This document shows, piece by piece, positions 12,349 through 60,754 of a DNA stretch of 64,000 nucleotides. The stretch spans positions 2,272,001 to 2,336,000 of the forward strand of contig CM000152.2 of the NCBI GenBank assembly GCA_000004695.1. The letters run 5' to 3'. Numbering within the stretch: position 1 is the first letter of the stretch; every line of letters starts with the position of its first letter. The notes beneath the pieces were generated by a model. That model worked only from the letters and a program-made list of their open reading frames with translations, was not told where the DNA came from and searched no databases. Position numbers and translations under genes: made by a program. The DNA is from Dictyostelium discoideum (Eukaryota).

Positions 12349-12429
<81 letters not shown>

Positions 12430-13961: not shown

Positions 13962-13997
<36 letters not shown>

Positions 13998-14201: not shown

Positions 14202-14371
14202 TTTTTTAAAAAAGAAAAATTATAAACTATTCTTTTTTTGATGTGAAAAAAAAAAAAAGTGTTTATAAAAATATATTTATAGATTATTATTTGATGAAGG
14301 AAAGATTTATTTCAAGGACCTCTTTTTTTTTTTTTAAATGAATTATATATATTTTTTTTTTTCCTCTTTTC

Positions 14372-14411
<40 letters not shown>

Positions 14412-14693
14412 AAAGTTTGTTTTGATCAAAAAATTTTCGTACGAGAGACCCTAATACTTGCAAGACCGTCCCAAAGATAAAGGGAAAAAAAATAAAAAAA
14501 TAAAAAAAAAAAAAATAAAAAAATTTAAAAAAATGTTTTTAGCTTTTAAGGATAAATCTTTGAACACAGATTTGTGTCAGTTTACTTTAATATCTTTTTT
14601 TCTCAATAAATTAAATTAAAATTTTTTTATTTTTTTTTTTTTTTTGTAAATAAAAAAATGTTTAAAACTAAAAATAAAACCACAATTAATCAA

Positions 14694-14725
<32 letters not shown>

Positions 14726-14921
14726 ATAATTTATATATTCTCAAAAATATCTTATATTTATCAACAAAAAAGAGGTATCTTTAAAAAAAAACAATTTTTT
14801 TAATTTTATTTATTTAATATTTTTTTGTTATATATTTATTTTTAGTTAATTATGTTTTTTTATTTTTATTTTAAATGTACAAAACTTATTTTTTCAATTA
14901 AAAAAAAAAGTTATTTTATTC

Positions 14922-20826
<5,905 letters not shown>

Positions 20827-21477
20827 TTTTTTTTTTTTTTTAATTTTTAATTATTTAAGTTTTGGTATGAATTTTTACCTTTGCGTTTTCTTTATTTTTT
20901 AGAAAAAAAAAAAAAAACAAATAATAATAACTTCATATACGAAGATTATTGTTTTGTAAGCGATAATTATTTAGAAAAACAATTGGAAAAAAAAAAAAAA
21001 AAATTAAAAAAAGAAAAAAAAAATAAATTAAAATAAAAAAAAATTACAAAAAAAAATTTGAGTAGATATTATAATAATTGATTGACGAGGTTTCGACAAA
21101 GGCTATAAAAAAAAAAAAATTCAACCAATCAAATCTTTTGGATATAGATTTTTTTTTTTGAATTTTTACAAAAAAAAAAAAAAAAAATTGAAAAATCTAA
21201 GTATGCTATTAAAATCATTTTAGATGGTCCAATCAACAGATTGTTTTTTAGGTTTAAAAATCATTATCATAATAACCAACTGTTTTTTTTTTTTAAAATT
21301 AAAAAACGTAAGGTGGGCCAAGTTTATTCCTTTTTATTGTAATTTTTTATCACTTTTTTTTTTTCTGACTTTTTATTTTTTTTTTTTTTTTTTTAATTTT
21401 AGCGTACCTAAAACTTTTTTTTAATTTTTATTTTTTTTTTTATTTTTATTTTTTTTTATATTTTTTTTTATTTCGAA

Positions 21478-24400
21478 TCAATCATCATTACTGGTTGGAG
21501 TGTTGACTGATGAATTATTGGGTGATTCGAAATCATTATTTGAATACTCGGATGGTGAATTGGAATTAGTATTAATTGAATTTTGACGAGAATCGCTAAC
21601 CATTGTCGATAATCTCGTTCCTTTTTCTCTCTTTGAGCCACCTCTACTGCTACCCCTAGTTGTTCCACTTGCGGTGTCAGCAACATTATTTTTAGCACGT
21701 TGGTCAAAGCAGAATAAAATACTACATGCTGGAATAATTTCAGTGATTATTAAACCAATGAAACTGAATACCATTGAATTTACATTTCCTGCTACTAAAA
21801 TCAAAACAAAAGCACAATGTAATAAAAACCCAATTGAGCAAACGAATGAAAGTATGAAAATTTTTCTTTGATGATTTGATTTTGAGCCCACTTTAATATT
21901 GGTTGAACGCATAACAATGAATAAACGGCCACCCAAGTAAATGAATGCTGCACCCATAATTAATGAAATTAATGCTTGAATCACCGCATAAACAATACTA
22001 ACTACACGTTGTGGTGTTGAACTTTCAATTGGAATTATAATACGTGAACCACAATCATTGGTTGGATTTGATTTGGTATATTGGAAAACCAATACAATTG
22101 CAATGAATAATAGGTAGAGGAATGCATTGATTACAAATACAATTGTAAATAATCTGTTTGTTAGATTATCAGCAGATTTATTCTTTTTCAATACCAGGAA
22201 AACAATGACATACCAAAGTACTAAAAGAATATTAAATGCTGTAAAGTAAATAAATGTTGGTAATACCACAAGAATGTAATCAATGATTGGACTATCGGAT
22301 AAATTACCACTTGGCATAATAAAGAAATAAATGGCTCTAATTGTGATAAATAGTGTTACGACACCAATTAAAAGATGAGTTAATTGGAATTTTCTTTTAA
22401 TTGATATATTTCTTTGTTTATATCTTGCAATTGCGATTAAACATAGTTCAAATCCACCCCACAACGCGACAACCAAAAAGAAGGTGGCCAATGTATACAT
22501 TAATGCCTTTGATGTCGAGTCGAATGCTTGTTTTCTTTCATCCTCCCATTCATCCATACGATTAATTGGGAAATAAATTGGATTACCACCTTCAATGGTA
22601 ACAATTGAACATAACATTAAAACTTCATCTTTACCTGCAGTTACACTATCCTCTGAAATTTGAGTGAAAACTTTACTTGATTGAATTGGATTTGGTGTTT
22701 TTGATTCAATATCATAACTACCATCATTTATTTGAATTGCAAAATCATAAATTGGATATTTTGAATTATTTGTTCCAGATATTGTTAAACAAATGGTTGC
22801 TTCATTTATACCATCTTGTGATTTAATCATAATACCATCTCCTAATAATGTACCAATGATTGCATCATTAGAGTTTTTAACACCATATTTATCAGCTTTC
22901 TTATAGGATACGAAATTTGATGCTAATGATTCTTTTTGTGCTGATGTATAGATTTCTCTTGAAATTTGTGAAATTGATAAAGATTGACAACTTTGAGAGA
23001 TTGAATCATTTGAAAATTCAATTTTACCATAATCGAATGAAAATGATGAATTTACACCTGCGCATGGTTTAGTTTGACCTAATAATGGTGTTGATGCAGT
23101 GAAACATTGTGAGCCACCTTTACCTGAACAACTACATGTAATTGAGTTCAAATTTGATTGTAATCTTTCCATACGACAATATGCTTCTGAACGGAATAAA
23201 TCTGCAACTTGAGCTTTTGCTGCTTTTGTAACACTCTTGTAGAATAGTTGATAATTGAATACATCTCTATTTTCATTTGGAATGAATGATTTTGCAGTAT
23301 TCCAAACAATTGGTTTATAAACACCTGGTAACCATGTGGCTGCTTCCCATTGGAATTTATTTGTCCATTTATTGAATGAATCTATACATGCTTCACATGT
23401 TTCTTGGTTCATTTCATTAAAATGGAAGTTGTATGGTAAATTGGTTTCATATGATTCTAAAATTTTACAACCCATTTGTAATGTACATGAACTTTGATTT
23501 CTTGCTGGTGTCCACCATACACCACCATCATCTTCACAATCGATTTGAGTTAAAACCATTGGATTAATAGAGTAGCAACCATTTGGTGAATCTTGTTGTT
23601 CAGACTCCTTACATGAAATTAAATATTGATAATTATCATGTGGGAACACACATCTACCCAATCCAACAGGATAATGATTATTTGCAAGAGAACTAAAGTA
23701 AAAGTCATCGGAACAAGTACCTGCTGCTGTTAAACATTCTTGTTCAGTTTGACATTCAATTGGTTTTAGTGAACAAAGTTTTACATTATTTAATGGTCCA
23801 GAACATTCACCTTCAAGTTTTGTTGAACAATCTATCCATGTATAATTTGTACCAGTGGCAGTACATTGTTGTTCATCCGTTGCAGATTTTAATATACAAA
23901 CATTTGCTTCGGTTGACCATTCAGTTGTACCTACAGGATTATCTAATGCTGCACAATTTGTGCTATTCATTCCGGTTTGTAAAATTGCACAATAATCATC
24001 TTGATTATTTGCTAAACTTGAAGAGCATTCATAACCACATGGTACTGAACATTTACCTTTAGAATTACAATTACTTTCGCTTGTTGCTGTTAAATCATAT
24101 TCACCATTTGGTAAAAGACAAATTTGATTTTGAGTTTGACATGATGTTTGATCTGTAAATTCAGTAGCTACATGACATTGAGTATCTTCATTTGTACAAA
24201 CACCACAAAAATCTTTTAAAACACAAGCATCTTCACATGACTCTTCAATGCCATTTTCAGTATATGTATTATCTTTGCAAGACAAGTATGGACAAATACC
24301 CCAATCAGTACAATTATCAACATGAGAAACTAATCTAAAATCCCAATGTGCATAAATTGACTCAATACAAGTATCATGATAGGTAATACATGATTCATCA

Positions 24401-26845
24401 ATACATTCTTGATGTTGAACTGCATAACAATCATCTACTTGGAATCCTGGTGACCAAATAAATGTTGAACGATCTTTAATATAATTATGACCAATACAAT
24501 CCTCTCTTATATGGTTATTGAAAACTTTAGTTACAACATCATCATTTACTGTTGTTGAACCTTCTAACAATGAGAATAATGTACCAGGTGATAAGTGTAA
24601 TAGTACACATTTTACATATTCAAAATCGATTGTATCAAAATCTGGTATACAAGTTCTTGAGTATAAATTACATTCACCATTTCCATATCCATTACAATCT
24701 GTATCATTTGAACAAAATGGTGATACTAATTTACTCTTGCAATCTCTTAAAACTGTAATTGATGTTAATTCTAATTTTTTAGGTTCAATTGATGGCACAG
24801 CACAATCATCAATACCAGTTAACGAACTACCATAATCTGATAATACTGATGAGGTACATTCTTGACTTGAACATTGTTCACTTACTAAACTTTTATTCAC
24901 CGATATGAATTGTGTAACATTTTTTAAAACAATTGATGGATTACAACATTGATAATATCTAGCCAATTCTGAACAACATGGGTCAGTTTTATATTCTGGA
25001 TCAGTGACGAAATGTGAACAATATTTTGTTGATATATTCTTTGCAACAGTTTCCATATGTAATAATGATAATGCTTTATTACTACAACCTATCCATGCAT
25101 CACTAATAGTCAATGAATCTAAACTATATCTATAATTATTTAATTCATCAATATCCGAAACATTAAATAGTGTTGTCTCTGTTTTTTCAATAAGTCCCAA
25201 AACTTTTTCAAATTCTGTATTATTACATTCTAAATTTTTTTCTTTAAAATTAATAGTTAAATCAATTGGCTAAAGTAATAATAATAATAATAATAAAAAA
25301 TAAATGTTAATAATTTTTTAAAAAATAAATGTTAATAATTTTTTAAAAAATAAAAATAAAAATTTAATATTATTATTTACATTATTATTTTCATCAAAAA
25401 TAGTTCCAAGGAATTGTAAAGATGATTCTAAAATTGTTGAATAATTTTCAATAAAATCACCACCAACTGAAAGAATAAATGCAACTTGAAATGATTTTGG
25501 TTTAAAAGTATTTAATGGTGGCTGTAAAATATTTAAATAGTTAAATGAAGTTGAATCAATGAAACGAGCAGATACTGGCCATAATGGATTTATATCGTAT
25601 TGTGGATAAATTGCGGTGAATGTAGTGCTAGTTGTAAAAGCTGCTGAATCATAATCAATAGTTGGCAAACGTAAACGTACACTATTAACCAATGCTAAAG
25701 TACCAGGTTGTGTTGATAATGATCCCAATGAATATCTATACCTATTACCTTGATTTGTAATTGAAAATGAATAATCTGTTTCATAAACTGTATATACACT
25801 TAAATAAATAATTAATGGTGTTGTACTATCAACTGGTTCCAAATATAATACCATATTATTTTCATCTAAAAAAAAAATAAAAAATAAAAAATAAAAAAAC
25901 AATTAATAAATTAATAAATTAATAAATTAATAAAATTATTATTATTTAAATACGTTACAATCTTGTTCTAATTTCCAAGTTGTATAACTGGCATTTGGAA
26001 ATATATATTCGTTTGAAATAAATATTGAAGTACTTTGAAAAATTGAAGGGAAATTAAAATAATAGAAACCAGCATTTTCAACTTGAAATGAATAATGTTG
26101 ATATTGATTATCTGTTAAGAAACCATAGACAACTTGACCAATAGTTACACATATATGGTCAGATGATACTGGTTGACAATTTGAAGTGTCGACAGGTTCA
26201 CTTGGTACATCATTTGAACGAATGATCATTTTAAAAGTATAATTGTTACTAAGTGGTTGAATTCTTAAAAAGTAAGTGTCACGACTCCAAGAATCTGTGA
26301 ATGTAAAATGTTCAGTTCTATTCCAATTATCTGATGGACATATATTGAATAACATATTTCTTTCAGGTGAAAAACCAGATGAATAACGTGAATAGCTTGA
26401 TGATGGTGTTTTACCATTAATATAAACTTGACCATATCCAGAGATTGGTAAAACTTTTAAAAATAAACCTTTACAACCAAATGAATCGGCTTTCATTCTA
26501 AAAAATAGATCCTCTGATGTAGTATAGATTTTTTCTGTATCCGATTCAATAGTTGTCCATTCGCCATTACAAATATTCTCAGTGACATTACATGCATTTG
26601 TACAACTTGGATCACGGATTTTCGGACATTCGTTCATATCTGTATAATCACATGTACAATCTATATTCTTATCACTTGGAATATCTGTACAATTATAGTT
26701 TGGACATCCCAATGAATCATATAAATAAATATCTTGATCAAATTCAACATCAATCAATGCATATGATAAATCGGTTCCCAATAAGTTAACATCTTTTTTT
26801 ATAATAGTTGACGATTTAACTTCAATACCTATTTACAATTATTTT

Positions 26846-26899
<54 letters not shown>

Positions 26900-27214
26900 G
26901 TATTTTTAGAATTTTTGATTTTCACGTTTTACAAAAAAAAAAAATAGTGCGAAAAAAAAAAACAGTGCGAAAAAAAAACAGTTCGAATTGTTTTTTTTTT
27001 TTTTTTTTCAGATTCCGTGTGGTAAAATAATTATAATTGTTTATTTTTTGATCTTCGTAAAAATAAAAAAAAATAAAAATAAAACAAAAAAGATAAAAAT
27101 AAAAAAAATAATAATAATGAAAAAAGAAATTAATTTACCTCTGATTTTATTTATAAAAAAAAGATGGAACGAAAATAAGAAAATGTAAAATATTACAATA
27201 TTTTTAACATTCAT
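21478..27214 (-). CDS. Giant Cys-rich-ectodomain 7TM receptor-like protein, paralog 3, about 1740 aa: join(27214..27139,26828..25959,25865..25381,25269..21478)
   Basis: Exon 1 ATG(27214)..MNVKNIVIFYIFLFSFHLFFINKIR(G), donor G|GTAAAT (27138). Acceptor aaatag|GT at 26829/26828 gives (G)IEVKSSTIIKKDVNLLGTDLSYALIDVEFDQDIYLYD.. Exon 2 ends ..WKLEQD T|GTAACG (25958-25953, non-canonical 4th-6th positions; the least certain junction). Acceptor ttttag|ATGAAAAT at 25866/25865 gives (Y)ENNMVLYLEPVDSTT.. Exon 3 ends ..TIFDENNN|GTAAAT (25380). Acceptor ctttag|CCAATTG at 25270/25269 gives PIDLTINFKEKNLECNNTEF..TTLFNVSD.. Seven TM helices and an S/N-rich tail as in paralogs 1 and 2. Intron 1 is unusually long (310 bp). 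Confidence 0.68.
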
Positions 27215-27628
27215 TTTTTTTTTTTTTTTAATTTTTTTTTTTTTTTTTTTTTTTTTCTACAGTACAATTATAATTATTTTATTACTTCACATTAAAAAAA
27301 AAAAAAAAAAAAAAAATAAAAAAAAAAAAAAAAGTAAACTCTTGAAAAAAGAAAAAATACAAAATTAAAAAAATAAAATATTTTAAATTTAAATAAAAAA
27401 ACTTTAAAAAAAATATTTTTATGGAAATCTTAGGAATCGCAGGAATTTTTTTAAATTTAAGAAAAATTTATTTTTATGCAGATCAGTTGTGCCGAACAAA
27501 TTTAAATAATCATTGGCTACTTATTTTTGATCAACGTTTAACATTAAGTTGGATTATTTTTTTTTTTTTCCTCATCTTTTGAGAAAGATATTTTTAAATG
27601 TTATTAATTATAAATACATTTTTCATTG

Positions 27629-27660
<32 letters not shown>

Positions 27661-28678
27661 CAAAGCATTTTTTTTTTTTTTTTAATTCGATCTCACCTAA
27701 AATCTTTTCAAAGAGTTTTGGTAATTTTATTTGATCATGAGATGTATGATAGATTTTTTGTTAGGTTTGATGATCATAATTCTCCACACCAAAAAAAATA
27801 AAATAATAAGAATTTATTCATTCTGGTTACAAAACAAAAAATTGAACAAAAATAATTATAAAGGAATTTCACTTTTTAATTTTTTTTTTTTTTTTTTTTT
27901 TTTTCGGATGAATTGTTTTATTAGAAAAAAAACATGTGGGTCAGAAAACAAAAAAAAAAGACTATAAATACTATTTTAAAATTAATTTTTTTTATTTTTT
28001 TTTTATTTTGAGGGGCGAAAAAAAAAAAGATATTTTTGATAAGAACATTTCAATTTAAATTTTTAATTTTTCTTTCACCTTTTTTTTTTTTTTTTTTAAT
28101 TATTAATTTATATTTTTCTTTTTTTCCTTGTTTTTTTAAGAAAGCATTTTTTAATTTTTTAATATCAATTTTTTATTAATTTATATATTTTTTTTTTTCT
28201 TGTTTTTTTTTTTTTTTTTGGTCTACCAATTTTTTTTATATTTTTTTTTTTAAATATTAAAAGATTAATATTTAAAGGAATTTAATAGTGTCTTTTTTTT
28301 TTTTTTTTTTTTTTTTTTTTGGCGTATTCCAAAAGTCTAAGAATCTCTTCAAGAATTTGATAGGGTTATAAAAAATAAAATAAGAAAAACGATTCACGCT
28401 TTACAGCATTCATATAATATTAATTGTGTGTTCCTTTATTTATTATGATCAATAATACATTAAAAAAAAAGAAAAAAATAAAAAAAAAATAAAAAAATAA
28501 AAAATAAAACAAAAGGACAACTCGCGAAGGGTTTTTTTTTGGAGAAAAATTCAGAGTAATTGCTGTAAGGCGAGCTTATTTAAAAATTAAAAAAAATCTA
28601 TTAATTAGTAAAAAAAATTTTAATAATAAAATTTTTATGGGATTTTTTTTTTTAATTTTTTTTTTTTGCCTCAGCTCC

Positions 28679-44890: not shown

Positions 44891-45367
44891 CATACACTGA
44901 TGGTAATGGTAAATCATAACTCATTCCTAAAACTTTTGAAAATGGGAAAAATACAACACCCAATGGTAAAATAACGAAAATATAATTTAAAACTAAATTA
45001 TTAATACATCTTTTAATATCTTGAGATGATGGATATTTCTAAAATAATATTAGTGTATGTTAATATTTATTTTTTTTTTTATTTATTTATTTTTTAAATT
45101 ATTTTTTTTTTTTACACATACAGTAACTTGAAGTTTTAACTTTGGGAAAAGTTTATATTTGTCAAATAAATGGAAGACAATTGCACTAAGGGCATAAAGG
45201 ATAGCCATTGAGATATAAAAAATTAAGAATAAACCAAATTCACCATAACTTTGAAGAATCCATGACCAACCATATTCAATTGAATTGGTTGGTTGTGGGT
45301 CGAGTTGGTCAATGTTATAGTTTTTTTCTGATTTGAAAAAACTTAAAATATTTCCTAATTTCATCAT
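44340..45367 (-). CDS. Methylsterol monooxygenase (ERG25/SC4MOL-type; fatty-acid hydroxylase superfamily), 281 aa: join(45367..45122,45038..44896,44796..44340)
   Basis: Histidine boxes HRFFH, HKEHHYYSAP and HDYHHKEF..NYG, plus the AHP(V)E and HSGY motifs typical of ERG25 (established family consensus). Exon 1 ends ..KLQVT|GTATGT. Exon 2 runs from acceptor ttttag|AAATAT at 45039/45038 (KYPSSQDIKRCINNLVLNY...) to ..LPLPS GT|GTATGT (phase 2). Exon 3 starts at acceptor tataatag|T TGG at 44797/44796, giving (V)WKFLFDIFLCLIGEDFFHYFMHRFFH. Introns are 83 bp and 99 bp. Confidence 0.85.
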
Positions 45368-45987: not shown

Positions 45988-47847
45988 ATGGAAAATAGTC
46001 ATTCTCAATGCATCTTTAAGAATGCAAAGGATTTTTTGACTGCCAACAATGCACTTATTTATCAAGTAGTTGTTGCAATCTTATCCATTGCTTTTTTATA
46101 TAAAATTCTTTTCAATAGAAAGAATATTACTAAAAGAGCAAAGAGAGATATTGGTATTTCACCAGCATCAAATGGTACCGGTCAAAAAATTGATTGTGTT
46201 AATCCAGCAACTGGAAAATCAATGGGTATTGTAAATTCATTAAAACCAGATGAAGTTAAAACTTGTTTAGAAGCTGCTCAAAAAGCTCAAGTTGAATGGG
46301 GTCAAACAACTTTTGATGAAAGAAGACAAATCTTACAAGATTTCATTGATATGTTTATTAAACATGAAAATGAATTAGTTGAAGCATCAATGAGAGATAC
46401 TGGTAAAACAAGTAAGTTTAAATTTTATATATATTTTATTTTTTTTTTTTTAAAAAAAAGATTATCGTTTATTAATAAATTTTTTTTTTTTTCTTAAAAA
46501 GGATTTGAAGCAATGTTTGGTGAAATTTTAACAAGTTGTGAAAAATTAAGATATTTAATTCAAAATGGTGAAAAAGCATTAAAAACTGAAGATAGAATTG
46601 TACCAATGTTAATGGGTACAAAATCAGCAAGATTAGAATATCATCCATTAGGTGTAATTGGTATTATTATTCCATGGAATTATCCAATTCATAGTATTAT
46701 TTCAGCAGCAGCAGCAGCAATTTTTGCAGGTAATGCAGCATTGGTAAAGGTATCAGAATGGTCAACTCATTCAAAGATTCTTTTTGAACATCTTTTAAGA
46801 AAAGTTTTATCCAATAGAGGTTATGATCCAAATTTGATTCAAATTCTTCCAGGTATGGGTGAAACTGGTGAAGCATTAGTTCGTAGTGGTGTCGATAAGA
46901 TTTTATTCATTGGTTCACCAGGTACTGGTAAACGTGTTATGAAAGCTGCAAGTGATAGTCTCACTCCAGTTATTTTAGAACTCGGTGGTAAAGATCCAAT
47001 GATTGTTTTCGATGATGTTGAATTGGATTGGGCATTAGCAATTGTACAAAGAGGTTGTTTCATTAATTTAGGTCAAAATTGTATTTCATCAGAGAGAGTA
47101 TTTGTTCATGAGAAGATCTATGATCAATTCTGTAAACAAATGGCTGATAAAATCAATTCTCTCAAACAAGGTCCACCAGAAGAAGGTCATTTCGATTTTG
47201 GTTCAATGACTATGCCAGCACAGGTTGATAAGGTTGAACATCTCGTTGGCACCGCCATCAAAGAGGGTGCCACATTATTAGCTGGTGGTAAAAGAAATCC
47301 AGCTTATCCAAAGGGTAACTATTTCCTTCCAACCGTTTTAGCAAATGTCACTGAAAATATGACAATTTTCCAAGAGGAAGCTTTTGGTCCAGTTTGTAGT
47401 ATCATTAAATTCTCTGATGAACACGATCTCATTCGTAAGGCCAATGGCACTGCTTTTGGTTTAGGTTGTTCAATCCTCAGTAGTGACATTAAAAGAGCTG
47501 AACGTATAGGTAGCAAAATCTCAACTGGTATGTTAACTATCAATGATTATGGTGCATCTTATTTAATTCAAGATCTTCCATTTGGTGGTTGTAAAGAATC
47601 TGGTTTCGGTCGTTTCAATGGTCCAGAAGGTCTTAGAGGTTTCTCACGTGAAGTTTCTATCCTCACTGATCGTTTTGGTATTAAAACTCCAGTTCCACGT
47701 CTTATTCGTTATCCAATTGATCCAGCTTCAGTTGGTATCATTCGTCAAGCTATCTATATGATTTATCAAAGAGGTATTGTCAATAAATTAAGAGCTGCTT
47801 TAAATTTTACTTCTCAAGTTATTAAAAATCCAAAATTATTATTATAA
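45988..47847 (+). CDS. Aldehyde dehydrogenase family protein with N-terminal membrane anchor, 589 aa: join(45988..46411,46502..47847)
   Basis: Exon 1 (ATG 45988) has a TM helix LIYQVVVAILSIAFLYKILF and ends ..MRDTGKT A|GTAAGT (46412-46417). Acceptor cttaaaaag|GA at 46501/46502 (phase 1) gives (R)FEAMFGEILTSCEKLRYL.. ALDH signatures are present: IIPWNYP, ELGGKDP, catalytic Cys in LGQNCISSERVFVHE, and the C-terminal EAFGPV / FGGCKESGFGRFNG. Confidence 0.85.
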
Positions 47848-49488: not shown

Positions 49489-49758
49489 TTAAATTTTTAT
49501 TAAACACAAAACATTCTTTTTCATTGTTTTTGAAATCGATATAATTTTTTTTTCACTTAAAAAGCTTTTTTTCTTTAATTTAAAATTTGATTTGCCAATA
49601 TTATTATTTAAGGTTTTCTTAACTTTTGGAATTTTGATTTTACCCTCTCTTTCTAATTTTCCTAAATGATTTCTAATATTTTCAATTGGACAATTATTTA
49701 TATTATTATTATTATTATTTATTTGGTCATTATTTATTTGGTTATTATTATTAATTTG

Positions 49759-49830
<72 letters not shown>

Positions 49831-50121
49831 TTCATTTTTAATATTTTCATTTTGTGGTAGAGGATTTAAAGATGGATTAAAGGTCGAACATGGAATATTA
49901 GAAGGACGGAAAATAAATTCGGAACTATATCTTATATTGGCATTATGATAAAAATTTAATTCTTGATCATCGAGAGAATCATCGTCATCAACACCTTCAA
50001 ATTCAAAAACCAATGGCTGGGTCGATAGAAATTGTCTTTGTTCGAGGAGATGACTAGTTGTATTTAAGCATGTTGGATGAATTAATGATATAGTTTCAAA
50101 TTCTGGTAATAAACTTTCCAT
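49489..50121 (-). CDS. Small Asn-rich protein of the 'MESLLP(E/Q)F.TISLIHP' family, divergent paralog, 210 aa
   Basis: ATG 50121-50119. The N-terminus MESLLPEFETISLIHP..SHLLEQRQFLSTQPLVFEFEGVDDDDS..QELNFY and the C-terminus NIRNHLGKLEREGKIKIPK are collinear with the three tandem copies at 53.5-57.9 kb. A central (AAT)n tract is present. Confidence 0.6.
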
Positions 50122-50226
50122 TTTTTTTTTTTTTTTTTTTTTTTTAATTAACTAATTTTTTTAAAATAAAATGAAAACTGTTTTTTTTTTTTTTGGAAAA
50201 AAAATAATAATTATTTTAATATGTGA

Positions 50227-50261
<35 letters not shown>

Positions 50262-50279
50262 CTTTTAGAAAAAAAAAAT

Positions 50280-50314
<35 letters not shown>

Positions 50315-50662
50315 CCTTTTTATTTTATATATGTTACCTTAATTTTTTTTTTTTTTTTTTTATTTTTATATAAATAACTGTTTATGGTGGTTAGAAATTT
50401 TTTTTTTTGTTTTCTTTTATTTTGATTTTTATATTATCGTGATGGTGAGGATGAAATAAAAAGAAATGAAAAAAAAAAAAAAAAAAAACAAAAAAAACAA
50501 AACAAAAATAAACAACACAAAAAAAAAAAAATAATAATAATAAATATATAAAAAATAAAAAAAATAAAAATAAAATAAAAAATTTAAAAATAAAAAAAAA
50601 AAAAAAAAAAAAAAAACAATTTAAATATGTAAAAATAAAATTTAATTAAATCTCGACATTAC

Positions 50663-50770
50663 GATCACCATGGGTGATAATTAATTGTATCCGAATAATA
50701 ATGTGGGTGTATAAATTATAATAGTATTAATAATAATAGTGCGTGGTGTGGGTGTGAATGTGTGTTGAAT
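50663..50770. promoter_or_regulatory. Inverted repeat ATCACC-ATG-GGTGAT, then a GT-rich G-box-like cluster (gtgggtgt, gtgcgtggtgtgggtgtgaatgtgtgttg), about 550-650 bp upstream of the divergent MESLL paralog
   Basis: Seen in sequence. The GGGTGATAAT core recurs at 54888 and 56830 inside tandem units A and B. Confidence 0.3.
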
Positions 50771-51649
50771 AATATCCAAAATGATTGGCTTAATAAATTA
50801 TCTTTTTTATTATTACTATTTTTATTTTATTTTATTTTATTATTAATTTAATTTTTATTTTTATTATTTTTAATAGTTATTGTATTGTTGATGGAAAATG
50901 GTGGTGTTGGATTATAATTTAAAATAACTATTTCTACAACAACAACAACAACAACAACAACAAAAAAAAAAAAAAAAAAAAATACAATAAAAAAAAAAAA
51001 AAAATCAAAAATAACAACAACACATATTTTTTTTTAAATCTAATAAAAAAAAACTTTTTGAAATTTATATTTTTTTTAATCTTTTTGGCGAGAGATTTGT
51101 ATTTGAAAATTATTTTCCACCAAATGAGATTCAAATCAACTCCCCCCACCACTACAACCACACATGAAAATTAAAAAAAAAAAAAAAAAAAAATTTAATT
51201 AGGGGGGTCTGTTAACTAAATTACATATATATATATACATTTTTCATATGTAAATGATCTTAGGGTAAAATTAAAAGTAATAATATACTTTTTTATGTAA
51301 TTAAAATGAGTGTGAAAGTGGGTTGTTTTGTAAACTTGTTTTTTTTTTTTTTTTTACTTGTTATTGTAACATTTTGGTGATCTAAAAATATAAATGAATT
51401 TTTAAAATTAAATATCATACCATTAACTATATATTTTTTTAAATAAGTGGGTGAATTTGAATGTTGGTGAGTGTGTGTGAGAGTGGGTTATTATGTATTA
51501 AACTTGTTTAGAGAAAAAAAAAAAAAAAAATAAAAAAAAAAAAAGGTGGTTGTGTGTGTAAATGGTGTGGGGAAATTAAATTAAAAAATGGCTTGAAATA
51601 GAAAAAGTATAGAGTTATTCTATATACATTTGTGTAAAAATTTATTTCC

Positions 51650-51688
<39 letters not shown>

Positions 51689-52465
51689 TGCCAATGAGAA
51701 CTTTTATTTTAAAATTTTTATCTTATATTAAATTAATACTAATATTAGATCTAAAAAAATTGGTATTTTAAGGGAATAAAAAAAAAAAAAAAAAACTGTT
51801 TTAATAAAGTCATATCATATAAATTTCCAAATTACTCTACTTTAATTTTATTTTTTTTATTTTTTAAAAATTTTAATTTGTTAGGTAACAATAAATATTT
51901 CATTTATTTGAAAAATTAATTCATAAAATAGACTTGAAATCAAAAAAACGTCAAAAAAGATAATAGTGATTTTTTTTTTTTATTTTTAGATTTTATTATT
52001 TGCCAATTGTAAATGGTGTGGGGGAAAAAATGTTTTTCATTATTTTTTATTTTATTTTTTCCACTTTTAAAAAAACAGTAAAGTTTATTTGTAGCGACAA
52101 TTTTAAAAAAAAAAAAAACAAAACAAAATTTTATAAAATAATAGTTTTTGAATTAAGATTTTAAAACATGTCTCCATTTGATCGAAATTTTTATATAAAT
52201 TAATAAAATTTAATTTTAGATCAATTAAAAATAGTAAAAATGAAAGATAAAAAACTTTTTTAAAAAAAAAATAAATAAAAAATAATAATGATACATAAAC
52301 CTCATATAATTCAATGGTGTTGATGATGATATAAATTAATGTCAATACAATAAAAACTTTGGGAATAGGGAGTATTTCATAAACCTCTTAATTTTTGAAA
52401 AATAATTAGAAAAAAAAAAAAAAAAAATTTATAAATTAGTTTTGTGTGTACGTGTCTGTGTATGG

Positions 52466-52503
<38 letters not shown>

Positions 52504-53509
52504 AAGATGATATTGTTATTATTGATTGTAAATTAAGGTTGGATGATTTAAAATTTTTATTAAACTCCAATTACTACATTTGATAATCTATTATTAATAA
52601 TATTTATGAGAAATAATCACATTTAATCTATTGAAATCTTGATAATTCTTTTTCTTTTTACTACCAAAAAAAACAACCACATCTTTTATTCATTTTTTTT
52701 TTTTTTTATACAAAAATAGGTTTTATCTTCCTCAAATCATTTATTTCTCAACTCTCATGACATTAGATTTTATTTTTTATAGATTAAAATTAAACCAATA
52801 ATAATAAACTTCCTTTTTTATATTTTTATTAAATCATGAATGTTTTTTATTTTTTTTAAAAAATGTTTTTATTGTTAATTTAAAATTTGTATTGTATAAA
52901 TATGTACAAATGGGTGTGTTATCTATTATTCCTAATAAAGTATTGTTAAATTTGTAATTCAATAATTGGGTAACACAAAACAAAGTTTCTAATATTGAAA
53001 AAACCATACCCCAAAAAAAAGTATTTAAATTAAACTTATGGGGGCAGTGTTTATTTCATTCTTAACTAATTTTTTATCTAATTATTATTTTATTAATAAA
53101 AAAAAAAAAAACACCAATTCAAAATTTGTCGTTATTTCATTTCCATAAAAAGGTGTTTTATTGTTAATTTTTTTTTTTTTTTTATTTTTTAAAAAAAATA
53201 AAAAATAAATCACAAATAAATAAAAAATAGAAAATTAAAAAAAAAAAAAATAAAAAAAAAATTAAAATAAAAAAATTAAAATAAAAAAATTTCCCTAAAA
53301 AAGTTAAAATTAATTTGTTTATTTTTTTAATTTTTTTTGTTTTTTTTTTTTTTTTTTTTTATCTGAAAAAAAAAAATCAAAATAATTTCAAGGAAAACAC
53401 TGGGGGTAGTTAATTGAAAAAAAAAAAAAAAAAAAAAATATGAACAATCTTTTGTTCATATTTTTTTTTTTTGAGAATATTTTATATTAAAAAAAAGAAA
53501 TAACTTTAT

Positions 53510-53742
53510 TTATTTTATTAAGCAATGAAACATATTTTTTTTCATTGTATTTGAAATTGAAATGAACTTTTTATCCCTTATAAAACTATTTTTTTTAATT
53601 TGAAAACCAGATTGATGGCTTTTATGAGAATTTAAACTTTTAGGAATTTTAATATGACCCTCTTTTTCTAAATTCTTTAAATGATTTGTAATATTTTCAA
53701 TTTGGTAATAATTATTTATATTATTGGTTTCATTTGAAATTA

Positions 53743-53821
<79 letters not shown>

Positions 53822-54037
53822 TTGTTTTAATGTTTGATCTGGTTTAAAATTATTATTATAAAAATTTAATTCTTGATCGAGAGTATCATCGGATTCGTCA
53901 TCATCCCAAACACCTTCAAATTCAATTACTAATGGTTGAGTTGATAGAAATTTTCTTTGTTCAAGGAGATGACTAGTTGCAGAACTCATTGGATGAATTA
54001 ATGATATTGTATTAAATTGTGGTAATAAACTTTCCAT
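53510..54037 (-). CDS. Small Asn-rich 'MESLLPQFNTISLIHPMSSATSHLLEQR..' family protein, tandem copy A, 175 aa
   Basis: ATG 54037. About 90% identical at nucleotide level to copies B and C outside the poly-N tract. Acidic block VWDDDESDDTLDQELNFY. C-terminus HLKNLEKEGHIKIPKSLN.HKSHQSGFQIKKNSFIRDKK.ISISNTMK. Confidence 0.65.
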
Positions 54038-54069
54038 ATTTTTATTATTAATTTTATTATTACTATTAT

Positions 54070-54110
<41 letters not shown>

Positions 54111-54342
54111 TAATTACTATGATACTATTTTTTTTTTTTTTTTTTTAAAAATTTTTTTTTTTTTTTCTTGCTTGTCTTATTATTTTTTATTTTTATTTTT
54201 TTTTTATACAAATAAAATAAGATTTGATTTGTTTTGTTTTTTTAAAAAAATGAAATTAAAAAAAAAAAAAAAAAAAAGAAAAGGAAAAAAAAAAAAGGGT
54301 AATAATGTAAAAAATTAAAATAAAAGTTTTTTTTTTTTTTTC

Positions 54343-54410
54343 ACACCGTCAGGTGAAATGAATTTATTTAAGAATTTCGCCAACAAAGATCTTTTTAGAT
54401 TGTTGTGATT
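54343..54410. promoter_or_regulatory. Conserved upstream module (copy A) with perfect 10-bp palindrome AAAGATCTTT (54385-54394), about 310-370 bp 5' of the gene ATG at 54037
   Basis: ..gtcaggtgaaatgaatttatttaagaatttcgccaacAAAGATCTTTttagattgtt.. The same block is at 56365-56440 (palindrome 56410-56419) and 58160-58230 (palindrome 58201-58210). Confidence 0.5.
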
Positions 54411-54695
54411 ATTTTGCGAATTAAAAAAAAGTTTTTTTTATTTTTTATTTTAATTTTATTTTTTTTTTATTTTAATTTTTTTTTTTTTTTTTTTTTTTAT
54501 AAAAATTTGCACATATGCATCGACGGGTAAGGTGCTCTAAATCAAATTTTTTTAATTTTATTTTTTTTATTTTTTAATTTTATTTTTTTATTTTTTTTTT
54601 TTTTTTTGTTTATTTATTTTTATTTGAATAATTTAAATGGATTGAACCATTTTAAATTTCTTTTGGATTGAACCATTTTTTTTATTTTTTTTTTA

Positions 54696-54726
<31 letters not shown>

Positions 54727-54848
54727 AATAACTCTATTTTATTATATTTTAAATTTTATATTAAAATTATTTTTAAAATAATAAAGAATATGATCTAATT
54801 CACTGTCTAATCGTCTCTAAAAAATTCAAACGTTAATGGGCGAAAGAC

Positions 54849-54881
<33 letters not shown>

Positions 54882-54989
54882 GTGTTGGGTGATAATATCT
54901 TTAAAGTAAGTATAAATTAAATATCATTGGCGGGTGTTTTTTTTTTTTTTTTTTTGAAAAAACTATATATTTGAAAATTTCAATCTGAT

Positions 54990-55133
54990 TAATCTCAAAC
55001 AACCAATATTGCTGTTAATAAATTAATGTGAAAAGTTCGCCCCCCTTTTGCCATCGTTAGTTACAAACTCCATCAAAACTAAAAAGCTTGACAATCGGAG
55101 GATCTGACAAAGATACACAAACATATGTTTATG
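54990..55133. other. Conserved about 140-bp non-coding element (copy 1 of 2) inside the tandem unit
   Basis: ctgttaataaattaatgtgaaaagttcgccccccttttgccatcgttagttacaaactccatcaaaactaaaaagcttga...ggatctga.aaaga.acacaaa.atatgtttat recurs at 56925-57068 with only a few substitutions. It is GC-richer than its surroundings and has no ORF. Confidence 0.5.
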
Positions 55134-55561
55134 AAAAAAAAAAAAAATAAAATAAAAAAAATAATAATAGCAAAATAAAACAATAATAATAATAATTATA
55201 ATAATTGGCCAAAAAAAAATAAAATAAAATAAAATAAAAATAAAAATAAAAATAAATTGCAAACCCTTTTTTTTAATCCCAAAATAAAAAAAAAAAAAAC
55301 GTGTCCAAAATTTGCAAATTTTACATTTTTTTTATTTTTTTATTTTTTTGTTTTTTTTATTTTTTTGTTTTTTTTGGGCCAAAAAAATCTAAATTTCGAA
55401 ATAATTTTTCGAGGAAGATGGTGAGTGGTCAATCCAAAAATTTTTTTTTTACAAAAAAAAAAAAAATATTAAAAAAAGATACCCACACAAAAAAAAAATA
55501 TAAAAACAGTATGGGGTGATTAAAATAATTAAAAAAAAAAGAAAAAAAGAAATAATTTTAT

Positions 55562-55791
55562 TTATTTTATAAAGCAATGAAATATATTATTTTTCATTGT
55601 ATTTGAAATTGAAATTAATTTTTTATCCCTTATAAAACTATTTTTTTTAATTTGAAATCCAGATTGATGGCTTTTACGAAAATTTAAACTTTTAGGAATT
55701 TTAACATGACCTTCTTTTTCTAATTTTTTTAAATGTTTTTTAATATTTTCAATTTGATAATTATTTATATTATTGGTTTCATTTGAAATTA

Positions 55792-55873
<82 letters not shown>

Positions 55874-56077
55874 TTGAATTTGTTTAAAATTATTATTATA
55901 AAAATTTAATTCTTGATCTAAAGTATCATCGGATTCGTCATCATCCCAAACACCTTCAAATTCGATTACTAGTGGCTGGGTTGATAGAAATTGTCTTTGT
56001 TCAAGGAGATGACTAGTTGCAGAACTCATTGGATGAATTAATGATATTGTATTAAATTGTGGTAATAAACTTTCCAT
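55562..56077 (-). CDS. Same family, tandem copy B, 171 aa
   Basis: ATG 56077. See copy A. The copies differ mainly in poly-N length. Confidence 0.65.
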
Positions 56078-56364
56078 TTTTTTTTTTTTTATTATCGTTA
56101 TAGTTTTTTTTTTTTTTTTTATTTATATTTAATTTATTTTAATATATTTATATTTATTTTATTTTTTAATAGGAAAATATTTTTATATTTAAATTTTTAT
56201 TATTATTATTTTATAACAAATGAAATATTTTTTGATTTGTTTTTTTTTAAAAAAAATGAAGAAAAAAAAAAAAAAAAAAAAGAAAAGAAAAAAAGAAAAA
56301 AAAAAAAAAAAGGGTAATAATGTAAAAATAAATTAAATTTAAATAAATTTTTTTTTTTTTTTTA

Positions 56365-56440
56365 AACCGGGTCAGTGACTAAATGAATTTATTAAAGAAT
56401 TTCGTCAACAAAGATCTTTTTGGATTGTTTGTGATTATTT
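56365..56440. promoter_or_regulatory. Conserved upstream module (copy B) with AAAGATCTTT palindrome
   Basis: gggtcagtgactaaatgaatttattaaagaatttcgtcaacAAAGATCTTTttggattgtt; about 290-360 bp 5' of the ATG at 56077 (minus-strand gene). Confidence 0.5.
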
Positions 56441-56875
56441 TTTTTAATTTGCGACCTAAAAAAAAGGTTTTTTTTTTTTATTTTTCTTTTTTTATTTTTT
56501 ATTTTTTTTATTTTCAAAAAATATTTAGGATTGCACCATTTTAAATTTCTTTTAATTTTCCACCATTTTTTTTTTATTTTGTTTTTAACTTAAAGTTATT
56601 ATTGTAATTGATTAATATCTTTTTTTTTTTTTTTTTTTATCTAATTTATAAATTTTATTAAAATTATTTTTTATAAAAAAAATTATAAATTTAAGTTTCC
56701 AGAAAAATAATTTCCATAAAAGGAAAAAAAACTATAAAAAAAAAAAAAAAAAAAAAATAGAAAAATATAAAAAAAAAAAAAAAAAATAGAAAAATATAAA
56801 AAAAAAAAAAATTTGCCCTTTAACAGTTGGGTGATAATATCTTAGATAGGTAAGTATAAATTAAATATCGTTTGT

Positions 56876-56920
<45 letters not shown>

Positions 56921-56924
56921 AAAA

Positions 56925-57068
56925 AAACTATACATTACAAACAACCAATGTTGCTGTTAATAAATTAATGTGAAAAGTTCGCCCCCCTTTTGCCATCGTT
57001 AGTTACAAACTCCATCAAAACTAAAAAGCTTGATAATAAAAGGATCTGATAAAGACACACAAATATAT
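56925..57068. other. Conserved about 140-bp non-coding element (copy 2)
   Basis: See 54990-55133. Confidence 0.5.
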
Positions 57069-57429
57069 GTTTATATTAAAAAAATAAAAAAATATAAAAA
57101 AAATAAAAAAATAATAACAATAATAAAATAAAACAATAATAAAAATAATAATGGTCAATTAACCAAAAAAAAAAAAAATAAATAAAAAAAAAAAAAAATT
57201 AATTACAGCGCAAATTTTACAATTTCAATTTTTTATTTTTTTGTTTTTTTTTATTTTTTTTTTTTGTCCAAAAAAAATCTAAATAATTTTTCAAGGAAGA
57301 AGGTGAGTGGTCAATCCAAAAATTTTAAAAAAAAAAATTTTAAAAAAAAAAAAAATATGAAAAAAATAGATGCACACAAACAGTGCGGGGTGATTTAAAA
57401 TTATTAAAAAAAAAAAGAGATAACTTTAT

Positions 57430-57918
57430 TTATTTTATTAAGCAATGAAATATATTATTTTTCATTGTATTTGAAATTGAAATTAATTTTTTATCCCTTA
57501 TAAAACTATTTTTTTTAATTTGAAATCCAGATTGATGGCTTTTACGAAAATTTAAACTTTTTGGAATTTTAATATGACCTTCTTTTTCTAATTTTTTTAA
57601 ATGTTTTGAAATGGTTTCAATTTGATAATTATTTATATTATTGTTTTCATTTGAAATTATATTGTTATTATTATTATTATTATTACTATTATTATTATTA
57701 TTATTATTTATATTTTGTGTTTGTTTAAAATTATTATTATAAAAATTTAATTCTAGATCTAGGGTATCTTCAGATTCGTCGTCGTCCCAAACACCTTCAA
57801 ATTCGATTACTAATGGTTGAGTTGATAGAAATTGTCTTTGTTCAAGGAGATGACTAGTTGCGGAACTCATTGGATGAATTAATGATATTGTATTAAATTG
57901 TGGTAATAAACTTTCCAT
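57430..57918 (-). CDS. Same family, tandem copy C, 162 aa
   Basis: ATG 57918. See copy A. Confidence 0.65.
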   Translation of the reverse strand: MESLLPQFNTISLIHPMSSATSHLLEQRQFLSTQPLVIEFEGVWDDDESEDTLDLELNFYNNNFKQTQNINNNNNNNSNNNNNNNNIISNENNNINNYQIETISKHLKKLEKEGHIKIPKSLNFRKSHQSGFQIKKNSFIRDKKLISISNTMKNNIFHCLIK

Positions 57919-58159
57919 ATTTTTATTATTATTATTATAATTAATTTTTTTTATTTTATTTTATTTTTATTTTTATTTTTATATTTATTAGAAAATTTTT
58001 TTATTATTCTATTACAAATAAAATATTTTTTGATTTGTTTTTTTTTTTAAAAAAAATGAACAAAAAAAAAAAAAGAAAAAAAAAAAAAAAAGAAAAAAAG
58101 AAAAAAAAAAAAAAGGGTAATAATTTAAAAAATAAATTAAATTTAAATAAATTTTTTTA

Positions 58160-58230
58160 AACCGGGTCACCAAATGAATTTATAAAAGAATTTCGTCAAC
58201 AAAGATCTTTTTAGATTGTTTTGTGATTAT
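58160..58230. promoter_or_regulatory. Conserved upstream module (copy C) with AAAGATCTTT palindrome
   Basis: gggtcaccaaatgaatttataaaagaatttcgtcaacAAAGATCTTTttagattgtt; about 240-310 bp 5' of the ATG at 57918. Confidence 0.5.
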
Positions 58231-58676
58231 TTTTTTTTTTTTTAAAATTTGCGACCCAACCATTCCACAAACAAATGGTTTTTTTTTTTTTTTTTAATTT
58301 TGATTTTTTTAATATTTTTTATTTTTATTTTTATTTTTATTTTTATTTTTATTTTTTTTTATCGATACGAATTATTCCAAAAACAAATGGGTTTTTTTTA
58401 TTTTTCTTTTTTTATTTTTTATTTTTTTTTTATTTTTAATTTTATTTTGGCAAGTGGATTTTGCACCATTCAAAATTTTGACCTTTTTTTTTTTTTTTTT
58501 TATTTTTTTTGTTTTTTAAGTTATTATTATAATTGATTATTATCTTTTTATTAATACTAATTCTATTACTTTTATTTAAATCTATTTTTTATTATAAATA
58601 ATTTTAAGTCTCACAAAACTTTTTACTTAAAAAGGAAAAAGCCGAGAATAGCTAAAAATTTTAAATTTCATCAATA

Positions 58677-58748
58677 GTTTCGATAGCTCAGTGGAAGAGC
58701 AAGCGACTGCAAATCGTTAGGTCGCCAGTTCAATCCTGGTTCGGAACT
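58677..58748 (+). tRNA. tRNA-Cys (anticodon GCA), 72 nt
   Basis: The cloverleaf folds by hand: acceptor GTTTCGA/TCGGAAC (one G-T wobble). D-stem GCTC/GAGC with loop AGTGGAA. Anticodon stem AGCGA/TCGTT with loop CTGCAAA, anticodon GCA. Variable loop AGGTC. T-stem GCCAG/CTGGT with loop TTCAATC (B-box-like). Discriminator T. Followed by a T-run. Confidence 0.9.
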
Positions 58749-58751
58749 TTC

Positions 58752-59596: not shown

Positions 59597-60754
<1,158 letters not shown>

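Follow-up and report, generated by a model that had tools for sequence, protein, structure and literature searches.

A tandem array of asparagine-rich orphan genes in Dictyostelium discoideum and a conserved block upstream of its copies

How much of the similarity kept between the copies of a tandem gene array reflects function, and how much is simply left over from duplication, is the question raised by four small genes for asparagine-rich proteins in Dictyostelium discoideum. They lie in a 64,000-nt stretch of chromosome 3 (NCBI GenBank assembly GCA_000004695.1, contig CM000152.2, positions 2,272,001 to 2,336,000 of the forward strand), called here the window, to which all coordinates refer unless another locus is named; its G+C content is ~22% and poly-Asn tracts are present. 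Three of the genes, copies A, B and C, form the array and the fourth, copy D, stands next to it. The picture that probably describes this locus is that of a real, expressed orphan family, expanded in tandem long ago from an ancestral D-type gene, in which one upstream block, U1, is a constrained promoter element.

The genes and the family they belong to

All four genes are single-exon open reading frames (ORFs) on the minus strand: copy D (49489-50121, 210 aa) and the tandem-type copies A (53510-54037, 175 aa), B (55562-56077, 171 aa) and C (57430-57918, 162 aa). The ORF list puts each of these paralogs exactly where the original prediction, made from the letters of the window, had placed it, and the protein alignment agrees with the conserved N- and C-terminal parts and variable poly-Asn core described there. 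The 162-aa ORF of copy C matches D. discoideum AX4 DDB_G0279623 (Q54WJ4) exactly; by gene order, copies D, A and B would be DDB_G0279617, DDB_G0279619 and DDB_G0279621, respectively. The ratio of nonsynonymous to synonymous divergence (dN/dS) was computed over 129 non-poly-Asn codons in 45 pairs of copies from AX4 and two sister taxa, D. citrinum and D. cf. discoideum, with only ~70 synonymous sites. It was 0.11-0.5 in 43 of the 45 pairs, and both higher values involve cf_3, a frameshifted copy of D. cf. discoideum; copy D compared with its D. citrinum ortholog gave 0.20. Since nearly every pair has a dN/dS well below 1, the four ORFs are functional protein-coding genes under purifying selection. 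Without the poly-Asn stretches the coding sequences (CDSs) are ~92-95% identical, as derived from difference counts. The stop codon overlaps AATAAA in the three AX4 tandem copies, and this arrangement aligns in seven of the eight tandem copies of the three taxa.

The family is restricted to dictyostelid social amoebae and spans all Dictyostelia. A profile search of 1.84 billion representative proteins gave eight matches and a broadened re-search gave twelve clusters, all of them dictyostelid or unlabelled and all “hypothetical” and unnamed; homologs include Tieghemostelium lacteum DLAC_01635, Acytostelium subglobosum SAMD00019534_045300 and Heterostelium album PPL_09113. In Pfam, no family reaches its gathering cut-off with the window proteins (best 13-17 bits against cut-offs of 22-30), and the longer dictyostelid homologs match nothing relevant above cut-off. 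The best hit of a profile search against PDB (E = 0.0096) was Nup205, over the poly-Asn segment, and no other was better than E = 0.02. The statement that the protein has no placeable motif was thus borne out by the Pfam scans and the PDB search. The broader description of the family as not recognised holds as far as Pfam and PDB are concerned, but the genes are carried in the annotation as hypothetical proteins and the family extends across Dictyostelia. Searches of article main texts for the gene IDs, the UniProt ID and the homolog locus tags found nothing, and the four gene IDs are not in the supplements of the multicellularity-genes paper. Copies A, B, D, cit_1 (from D. citrinum) and cf_2 (from D. 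cf. discoideum), which have long Asn runs, are missing from the searched protein collection despite being called as genes. The AX4 copies concerned have Asn runs of 24-27, and every absent family member has a long one; this looks like the effect of a low-complexity filter rather than of missing annotation, and such filtering could hide Asn-rich Dictyostelium proteins in similar searches.

The four window proteins carry a net charge of about -11 in the first 60 residues and about +9 to +16 in the last 62, and Asn makes up 20-26% of them overall. With a family alignment of 10 sequences, AlphaFold2 gave a mean predicted local distance difference test score (pLDDT) of 41 and a single short helix, at HLKKLEKEGHIKIPK. 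The proteins are small and, by this prediction, largely disordered, with an acidic N-terminal part of ~60 aa, a variable poly-Asn linker and a Lys-rich C-terminal part of ~60 aa. The helix at HLKKLEKEGHIKIPK is also where the L..LE.EG.I segment weakly resembles winged-helix domains (Pfam HTH_34, BLACT_WH and DUF2513) below threshold, at 12-17 bits. However, the match covers only ~15-45 residues, the proteins lack the remainder of the fold, and AlphaFold2 models them as unstructured.

The distant homologs resemble copy D. They share the N-terminal motif M[ED]S.L.E[LF]…LIH[PS]TC..TT.H.L.QRE.L..QPL, the motif G.I.IPK, the motif R[RY][YF]SSE.IF.P (RYSSEFIFRP in copy D), which is lost in A-C, and the motif ISKTM..N.F.CLI[KE]P with ~10 more residues after it. 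In most of the longer ones there is also KKRKR with an acidic run behind it, resembling a nuclear-localisation signal. The disorder, the segregation of charge and the KKRKR stretch of the distant orthologs are the reasons for guessing at a nuclear regulator or adaptor acting through short linear motifs, a guess that should be regarded as quite doubtful. At the C-terminus, copies A-C end in C[LF]IK and copy D in CLIKI, while the Tieghemostelium and P0013 homologs continue as CLIKP plus ~10 residues. A CaaX box (prenylation), for which a Cys would have to stand exactly four residues from the C-terminus throughout the family, was considered for the terminal CLIK and was ruled out because the distant homologs continue for ~10 residues after it.

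Origin and history of the tandem array

Comparison of the window with itself finds three direct-repeat units on the minus strand (53190-~58640), as the original prediction had proposed for three of the four copies; their boundaries were set by self-blastn and by alignment of the three units. Unit A covers 53190-55183, unit B 55184-57094 and unit C 57095-~58640, the last being truncated at its upstream end next to a tRNA-Cys(GCA) gene (58676-58749, plus strand, found by Rfam scan), which forms the upstream boundary of the array. The spacing from ATG to ATG is 2040 and 1841 nt. The similarity of copy D to A-C is limited in self-blastn to the CDS and ~100-150 nt of flank.

The array is reproduced outside the window. 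Over 16.6 kb, a D. discoideum assembly made independently at chromosome scale (GCA_054883475.1) agrees with it at 99.29% identity, with 12 mismatches and small indels, and the 162, 171, 175 and 210-aa genes are called in it in the same order. The syntenic locus of D. citrinum has two tandem copies and one D-type copy, and that of D. cf. discoideum (locus L002) has three tandem copies and one D-type copy. From the flanks, the positional correspondence is C with cf_1, B with cf_2, A with cf_3 and cit_2, and D with cf_D and cit_D. Diverged copies reproduced in an independent assembly and in related genomes show that the array is a genuine tandem segmental duplication and not an assembly artefact. 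Between copies 2 and 3 of D. cf. discoideum there is an unrelated insertion of ~3.5 kb (L002 12360-15849) with two unrelated ORFs, at 13617-14232 (minus) and 14597-15076 (plus, with an acidic C-terminus); the third copy, cf_3 (L002 15850-16413), is the one with the frameshifted C-terminus.

In Tieghemostelium and Acytostelium the gene is single-copy and convergent to a gene for an aldehyde dehydrogenase of ~600 aa, and copy D is likewise convergent to an aldehyde dehydrogenase gene in the window. Because the relatives are single-copy, D-like in their motifs and placed beside the same aldehyde dehydrogenase gene, D is ancestral and A-C are shortened copies that arose in a tandem expansion specific to their lineage. 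The aldehyde dehydrogenase ORF flanking copy D (46513-47847, plus strand) is probably only the 3' exon of a product of ~589 aa. Also flanking copy D is DDB_G0279615 (48738-49070, plus strand), which encodes a 110-aa SnoaL-like protein.

The tandem copies are not young. Among those of AX4 the synonymous divergence (dS) is 0.16-0.22, and the array with a homologous spacer is present in D. cf. discoideum and D. citrinum as well, so the recent duplication first suggested does not hold. For concerted evolution, suggested at the same time, there is some support. In D. citrinum dS is 0.17 between the two copies and 0.37-0.46 to every AX4 copy; in D. cf. discoideum it is 0.09-0.13 between the copies and 0.12-0.22 to those of AX4. 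Paralogs are closer to each other than to positional orthologs in D. citrinum, weakly so in D. cf. discoideum, and not evidently in AX4, with ~70 synonymous sites to judge by. We infer that gene conversion has acted among the tandem copies. The D. citrinum spacer has its blocks in the same order as AX4 (3' flank, start of M2, M4, GGT..CAATCC repeat), and for this reason one old duplication followed by gene conversion is favoured over independent duplications, although ~70 synonymous sites do not settle the choice.

Conserved non-coding DNA and the block U1

The intergenic DNA of the array had been described as about 90% conserved, which proved to be an overstatement. Whole repeat units are 73-78% identical (blastn), megablast cores that include the CDS 83-86%, and the two complete AX4 spacers 77% at aligned bases or 60% when gaps are counted (global alignment); identity of at least 90% is confined to discrete blocks of the spacers. 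The similarity of these blocks is far beyond chance, with 24-mers from them recurring two or three times against 0.00-0.01 expected. For comparison, in the intergenic DNA upstream of D, which is single-copy, AX4 agrees with D. cf. discoideum at 91% of aligned bases and with D. citrinum at 79%. Most of the similarity between the spacers is about as much as would remain from a moderately old duplication. The modules correspond to stretches of some sequence complexity, made conspicuous by the faster decay, through slippage, of the A/T runs around them. As to whether functional non-coding elements are present, this can be maintained for the upstream block U1, while most other modules are indistinguishable from leftover similarity.

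U1 is an element of 35-70 nt that every one of the eight tandem-type copies in the three taxa has and the D-type copies lack, as seen in an alignment of 520 nt of upstream sequence. On the minus strand it lies at 58161-58229 for copy C, 56366-56437 for copy B and 54343-54411 for copy A. From each block it is about 280-360 nt to the ATG downstream, and ~50-60 nt to where a TATA-like box starts. Its sequence, TAATCAC-AAACAATCTAAAAAGATCTTTGTTGACGAAATTCTT.ATAAATTCATTT…TGACCCGGT (TAATCAC..AACAATCTAAAAAGATCTTTGTTGACGAAATTC..TGACCCGGT in copy C), is invariant or near-invariant across the eight copies. The core holds a 10-bp palindrome, AAAGATCTTT (58201-58210 in C, 56410-56419 in B, 54385-54394 in A), which occurs in the 64-kb window at these three sites only. 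An objective scan for blocks conserved in all eight copies recovered only the U1 core, and U1 is the best 40-column window of a four-spacer, three-taxon alignment, with 92% identity against 17-76% elsewhere. Between AX4 and D. citrinum the p-distance is 0.074 in the core and 0.135 in the whole block, and the synonymous-site divergence is ~0.31 (21.5/69 sites). The positional orthologs AX4_A and cit_2 have no mismatch in 35 aligned U1 bases. The calculated probability of this at the neutral rate of 0.31 is ~2e-6, or roughly 1e-4 if ~40 possible windows are allowed for. Because the core diverges so much less between AX4 and D. citrinum than synonymous sites do, U1 is under constraint and conserved between species.

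Downstream of U1 follow, in this order, a TATA-like stretch, a long T-run and the block ACAAATCAAAAAATATTTTATTTGT, with the ATG 180-250 nt beyond the T-run. The TATA-like A/T box, which ends in TTACCC, together with its oligo-T run occupies 58101-58151 in copy C, 56296-56347 in B and 54285-54324 in A, and ACAAATCAAAAAATATTTTATTTGT, possibly the start of the 5' untranslated region, lies at 58014-58038 with equivalents at 56216-56240 and 54208-54232 (all minus strand). In Dictyostelium, core promoters usually consist of a TATA box and, between it and the start site, a run of oligo-dT. In such a setting U1 would be a promoter or enhancer element shared by the tandem copies. No AGATCT palindrome element in Dictyostelium promoters was found in the literature search.

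The other modules, also on the minus strand, are each found in only some copies or taxa. M2, which is GC-richer and contains CAGATCC and a 16-codon ORF (MEFVTNDGKRGANFSH*), lies at 56938-57057 with a second copy at 54996-55115; only AX4 and D. cf. discoideum have it, the D. citrinum sequence being degenerate. M3 (54884-54936) has two CACCC boxes. M4 (54786-54848) contains TTAGATCAT and is common to AX4 and D. cf. discoideum and partly to D. citrinum. The direct repeat AAATGGTTCAATCC is present in two copies at 54639-54678, with an equivalent in the C-B spacer at 56528-56568, and the 3'-flank block TTGGATTGACCACTCACC lies downstream of copy B at 55420-55437 and downstream of copy C at 57302-57319. 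M3, M4, the duplicated AAATGGTTCAATCC and the 3' block TTGGATTGACCACTCACC are absent from part of the copies. Like M2, these modules may be further regulatory sites or simply residual similarity. Inverted repeats and a 66-nt “palindrome” in the 3' flanks were rejected as merely complementarity of A-runs and T-runs, as was an apparent inverted match of 52406-52498 to L002.

The palindrome of U1 contains GATC, the sequence that the DNA-binding domain of GtaC, a zinc-finger factor of the GATA type, prefers (Santhanam et al., 2015, PMC4506546). The local non-coding DNA has 13 GATC sites, where a first-order Markov model predicts 3.1 +/- 1.7; the duplicated sites are not independent, and ~10 independent ones remain. 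Most have the form [AT]AGATC[AT]. They are found in U1 (within AAAGATCTTT), M2, M4 and the long single-copy spacer upstream of copy D (50122-53189, minus strand), so that the motif expected of a GtaC target is present in the promoters. The D-upstream spacer has seven of them, of which four or five are conserved in the three taxa, compared with 35% for comparable 4-mers. D-specific conserved blocks lie at 50213-50230 (AAGATCACAT), 50373-50397 and 50425-50454 (CACGATAATAT), on the minus strand. The D-upstream spacer is unusually long (3.4 kb) and alignable in three taxa, and no gene is called in it in any assembly.

In the target tables available from the GtaC study (PMC4506546, Supplementary Data 2), DDB_G0279617 is among the top-ranked putative targets, with a rank product of 0.0028 at early and 3.9e-5 at late aggregation, a differential-expression score (complemented vs knockout) of 3.49 early and 1.36 late, and a GtaC binding score of 18.9 at late aggregation. 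For DDB_G0279619, DDB_G0279621 and DDB_G0279623, the entries stand in the “direct target genes” sheet of this file, among the many unsorted rows below the ranked set. All four IDs are thus listed as GtaC-bound in these tables, where the unsorted tail and the multi-mapping of reads among paralogs limit what the listing means. The neighbour DDB_G0279615 is likewise listed in the target table (PMC4506546). Rosengarten et al. (2015, PMC4403905, Additional file 7) likewise list all four IDs as differentially expressed: DDB_G0279617 in filter_UP, at ~7-8 h by column count, DDB_G0279619 in suspension_UP, and DDB_G0279623 and DDB_G0279621 in suspension_DOWN. The most plausible protein to bind U1 is a GATA-type factor such as GtaC, although the assignment to GtaC, taken alone, is rather less likely than not.

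Alternative explanations and the points that weigh against a regulatory role

The suspicion that the array is an assembly duplication artefact, named beforehand as what could undo the case, or that it is a repeat derived from a transposable element (TE) beside a tRNA gene, can practically be dismissed. The array does abut tRNA-Cys, and tRNA genes are the targets of Dictyostelium TRE elements. The divergence between units, however, is 22-27%, so that they are not collapsible duplicates. The same array is carried by the independent assembly and orthologous arrays by two other taxa; no transposon-like ORF and no further unit copies were found in the 64-kb window. Hardly more credible is the view that the ORFs lack function, being pseudogenes in decay or reading frames open by chance in Asn-codon-rich DNA. 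Such a view would fit the lack of a recognisable domain, the very low structure confidence and the frameshifted C-terminus of one D. cf. discoideum copy, but it is opposed by dN/dS well below 1 in nearly all comparisons, by ORFs intact in three taxa, by the conservation of the family across Dictyostelia and by the differential expression of the genes in published RNA-seq lists. Another conceivable reading gives the spacer modules, and M2 above all, a product of their own, which could be a micro-peptide (MEFVTNDGKRGANFSH), a terminal exon or a small non-coding RNA (ncRNA). The 16-codon ORF is open in all four M2 copies of AX4 and D. cf. discoideum, the copies differ by two synonymous changes, one Ala-to-Val change and a 3-nt deletion that keeps the frame, and a splice-acceptor-like TTTTTAG precedes it. 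This is nevertheless improbable: M2 is not conserved in D. citrinum, the coding signal comes from ~4 changes in four closely related copies, and no gene is called at M2 in four annotated assemblies. Nor do the modules match an Rfam family or contain, within 49-59 kb, a DUSE or the Class I 11-nt motif. An Rfam E-value scan of 47.8-59.7 kb found tRNA-Cys only; DUSE ([AT]CCCA[CT]AA) has nine matches in the window, none of them between 45.3 and 62.3 kb; and the 11-nt motif CCTTACAGCAA has no match within 2 mismatches in 49-59 kb. A DUSE-driven or Class I RNA in the modules was accordingly rejected. By the published description of Class I RNAs (PMC7919456), DUSE lies ~60 nt upstream of the RNA start and CCTTACAGCAA next to the terminal stem. 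The modules are like such genes in being short conserved non-coding islands in AT-rich intergenic DNA, and TTAACAGCAA of M2 resembles CCTTACAGCAA, but they lack the stem, the terminal nucleotides and the T-run layout.

A purely neutral history, in which all modules including U1 go back to leftover duplication similarity plus gene conversion and have no cis-regulatory function, has to be taken more seriously, though it too is considered unlikely. The spacer identity of 77% at aligned bases is near what a dS of 0.16-0.22 predicts, the overall conservation of U1 equals that of third codon positions across the eight copies, conversion is indicated in the CDS and could extend upstream, and the modules simply are the parts of the spacers that are not of low complexity. 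However, gene conversion works inside a genome and does not account for identity between species, which is what the U1 core exhibits (0.074 against ~0.31 at synonymous sites, and no difference in 35 bases between AX4_A and cit_2), and flanking bases fall to 36-48% identity across all four spacers. In addition, U1 holds the GATC palindrome, and the promoters are reported as GtaC-bound.

Several observations weigh against the preferred picture of an expressed family with U1 as a constrained promoter element. Across the eight copies, the whole of U1 is no more invariant than third codon positions (47/67 vs 79/113 columns) and its core is only marginally more so (30/35, p = 0.08); the case for U1 consequently rests on the between-species comparison and on a window picked after looking at the data. 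The TATA and T-run stretch would be the core promoter of the tandem copies by analogy with the usual Dictyostelium layout. The IDs ending in 17, 19 and 21 are assigned to copies D, A and B through gene order alone, and the KKRKR motif of the distant homologs is missing from the D. discoideum copies. Short reads do not cleanly separate near-identical paralogs, and copy-specific statements are accordingly tentative. The copies fall into different expression lists, and a single shared regulator does not account for all of this. Finally, the list of GtaC-bound genes is long, and its unsorted tail has no header in the part available (PMC4506546).

Proposed course of events and comparison with known systems

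Taken together, the expanded family with a constrained U1 probably arose as follows. The D gene has kept its place beside the aldehyde dehydrogenase gene since the dictyostelid ancestor. In the lineage of D. discoideum and D. citrinum, a shortened derivative would then have arisen just upstream of D, losing the RYSSE.IF.P motif and the middle region, and its tandem duplication would have led to the two copies of D. citrinum and the three of D. discoideum. The tandem CDSs have stayed under purifying selection and appear to be partly homogenised by gene conversion, and most conserved modules are the residue of a moderately old duplication, with U1 as the constrained exception. If a GATA-type factor such as GtaC binds U1, then the family would be tied to early development driven by pulses of cyclic AMP (cAMP).

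A bolder proposal is that the family is an unrecognised developmental regulator specific to dictyostelids, disordered, charge-dipolar and probably nuclear, which is induced by GtaC in cAMP-pulse signalling. The tandem copies would have a new palindromic GATC enhancer and diverged timing, with B and C falling at starvation and A and D rising in aggregation. This proposal is rather unlikely as it stands. If it were true, the array would help to time aggregation, with U1 representing a GtaC/GATA composite site of a new kind. Independently of it, the locus offers an unnamed family found throughout Dictyostelia and defined by clear short motifs and a conserved genomic position. It is also a compact natural experiment, in which promoters, and apparently developmental timing too, differ among one ancestral and three derived copies. 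The sharply delimited candidate cis-element AAAGATCTTT in U1 is directly testable as a GtaC/GATA site, and few transcription-factor binding sites have been defined at base resolution in Dictyostelium.

Some further features of the window were recorded. Unit C ends just short of tRNA-Cys(GCA), exactly at the upstream edge of the array, and a polyubiquitin gene of five head-to-tail ubiquitin repeats follows at 59609-60754 (plus), four full units of which are 92-95% identical in DNA. A probable Class I non-coding RNA gene lies at 28515-28642 (minus), with the DUSE TCCCATAA at 28635-28642 and, ~60 nt downstream of it, AAGCTCG and a perfect CCTTACAGCAA (28560-28570), followed by CGCGAGTTGT and a T-run. 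A weaker Class I-like candidate, at 45181-45300 (minus), has CCTTAGTGCAA at 45181-45191 and the DUSE ACCCACAA ~100 nt upstream, at 45293-45300. ACCCATAA is found at 9005, 15480 and 21952 (plus) and CTTTACAGCAT at 9289, 15764 and 22236 (minus), both with a period of ~6.47 kb, with an inverted copy of the latter at 28399 (plus); this suggests a large tandem repeat of ~6.5 kb in three copies at ~9000-28400.

When compared with known systems, the genes are similar to the direct targets of GtaC in early development, which that study defined by ChIP-seq and RNA-seq (PMC4506546), in that the four IDs are in the target sheets, copy D is a high-confidence target with GtaC-dependent induction, and the promoters have conserved GATC cores. 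This likeness comes from the published tables, and short reads hardly tell the paralogs apart. No description of the palindromic AAAGATCTTT site as a GtaC element came up in the literature search.

Lineage-specific families of tandemly duplicated genes are a general feature of the AX4 genome. As in other such families of D. discoideum, the copies lie head-to-tail ~2 kb apart and have Asn-rich low-complexity cores, their number varies between close relatives, and there are signs of gene conversion. Unlike those families, the present one has no named domain, one ancestral single-copy member has kept its position across Dictyostelia, and the promoter of the expansion copies differs from that of the ancestral copy. 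The case is one of ordinary gene-family evolution with a neat, testable cis-element.

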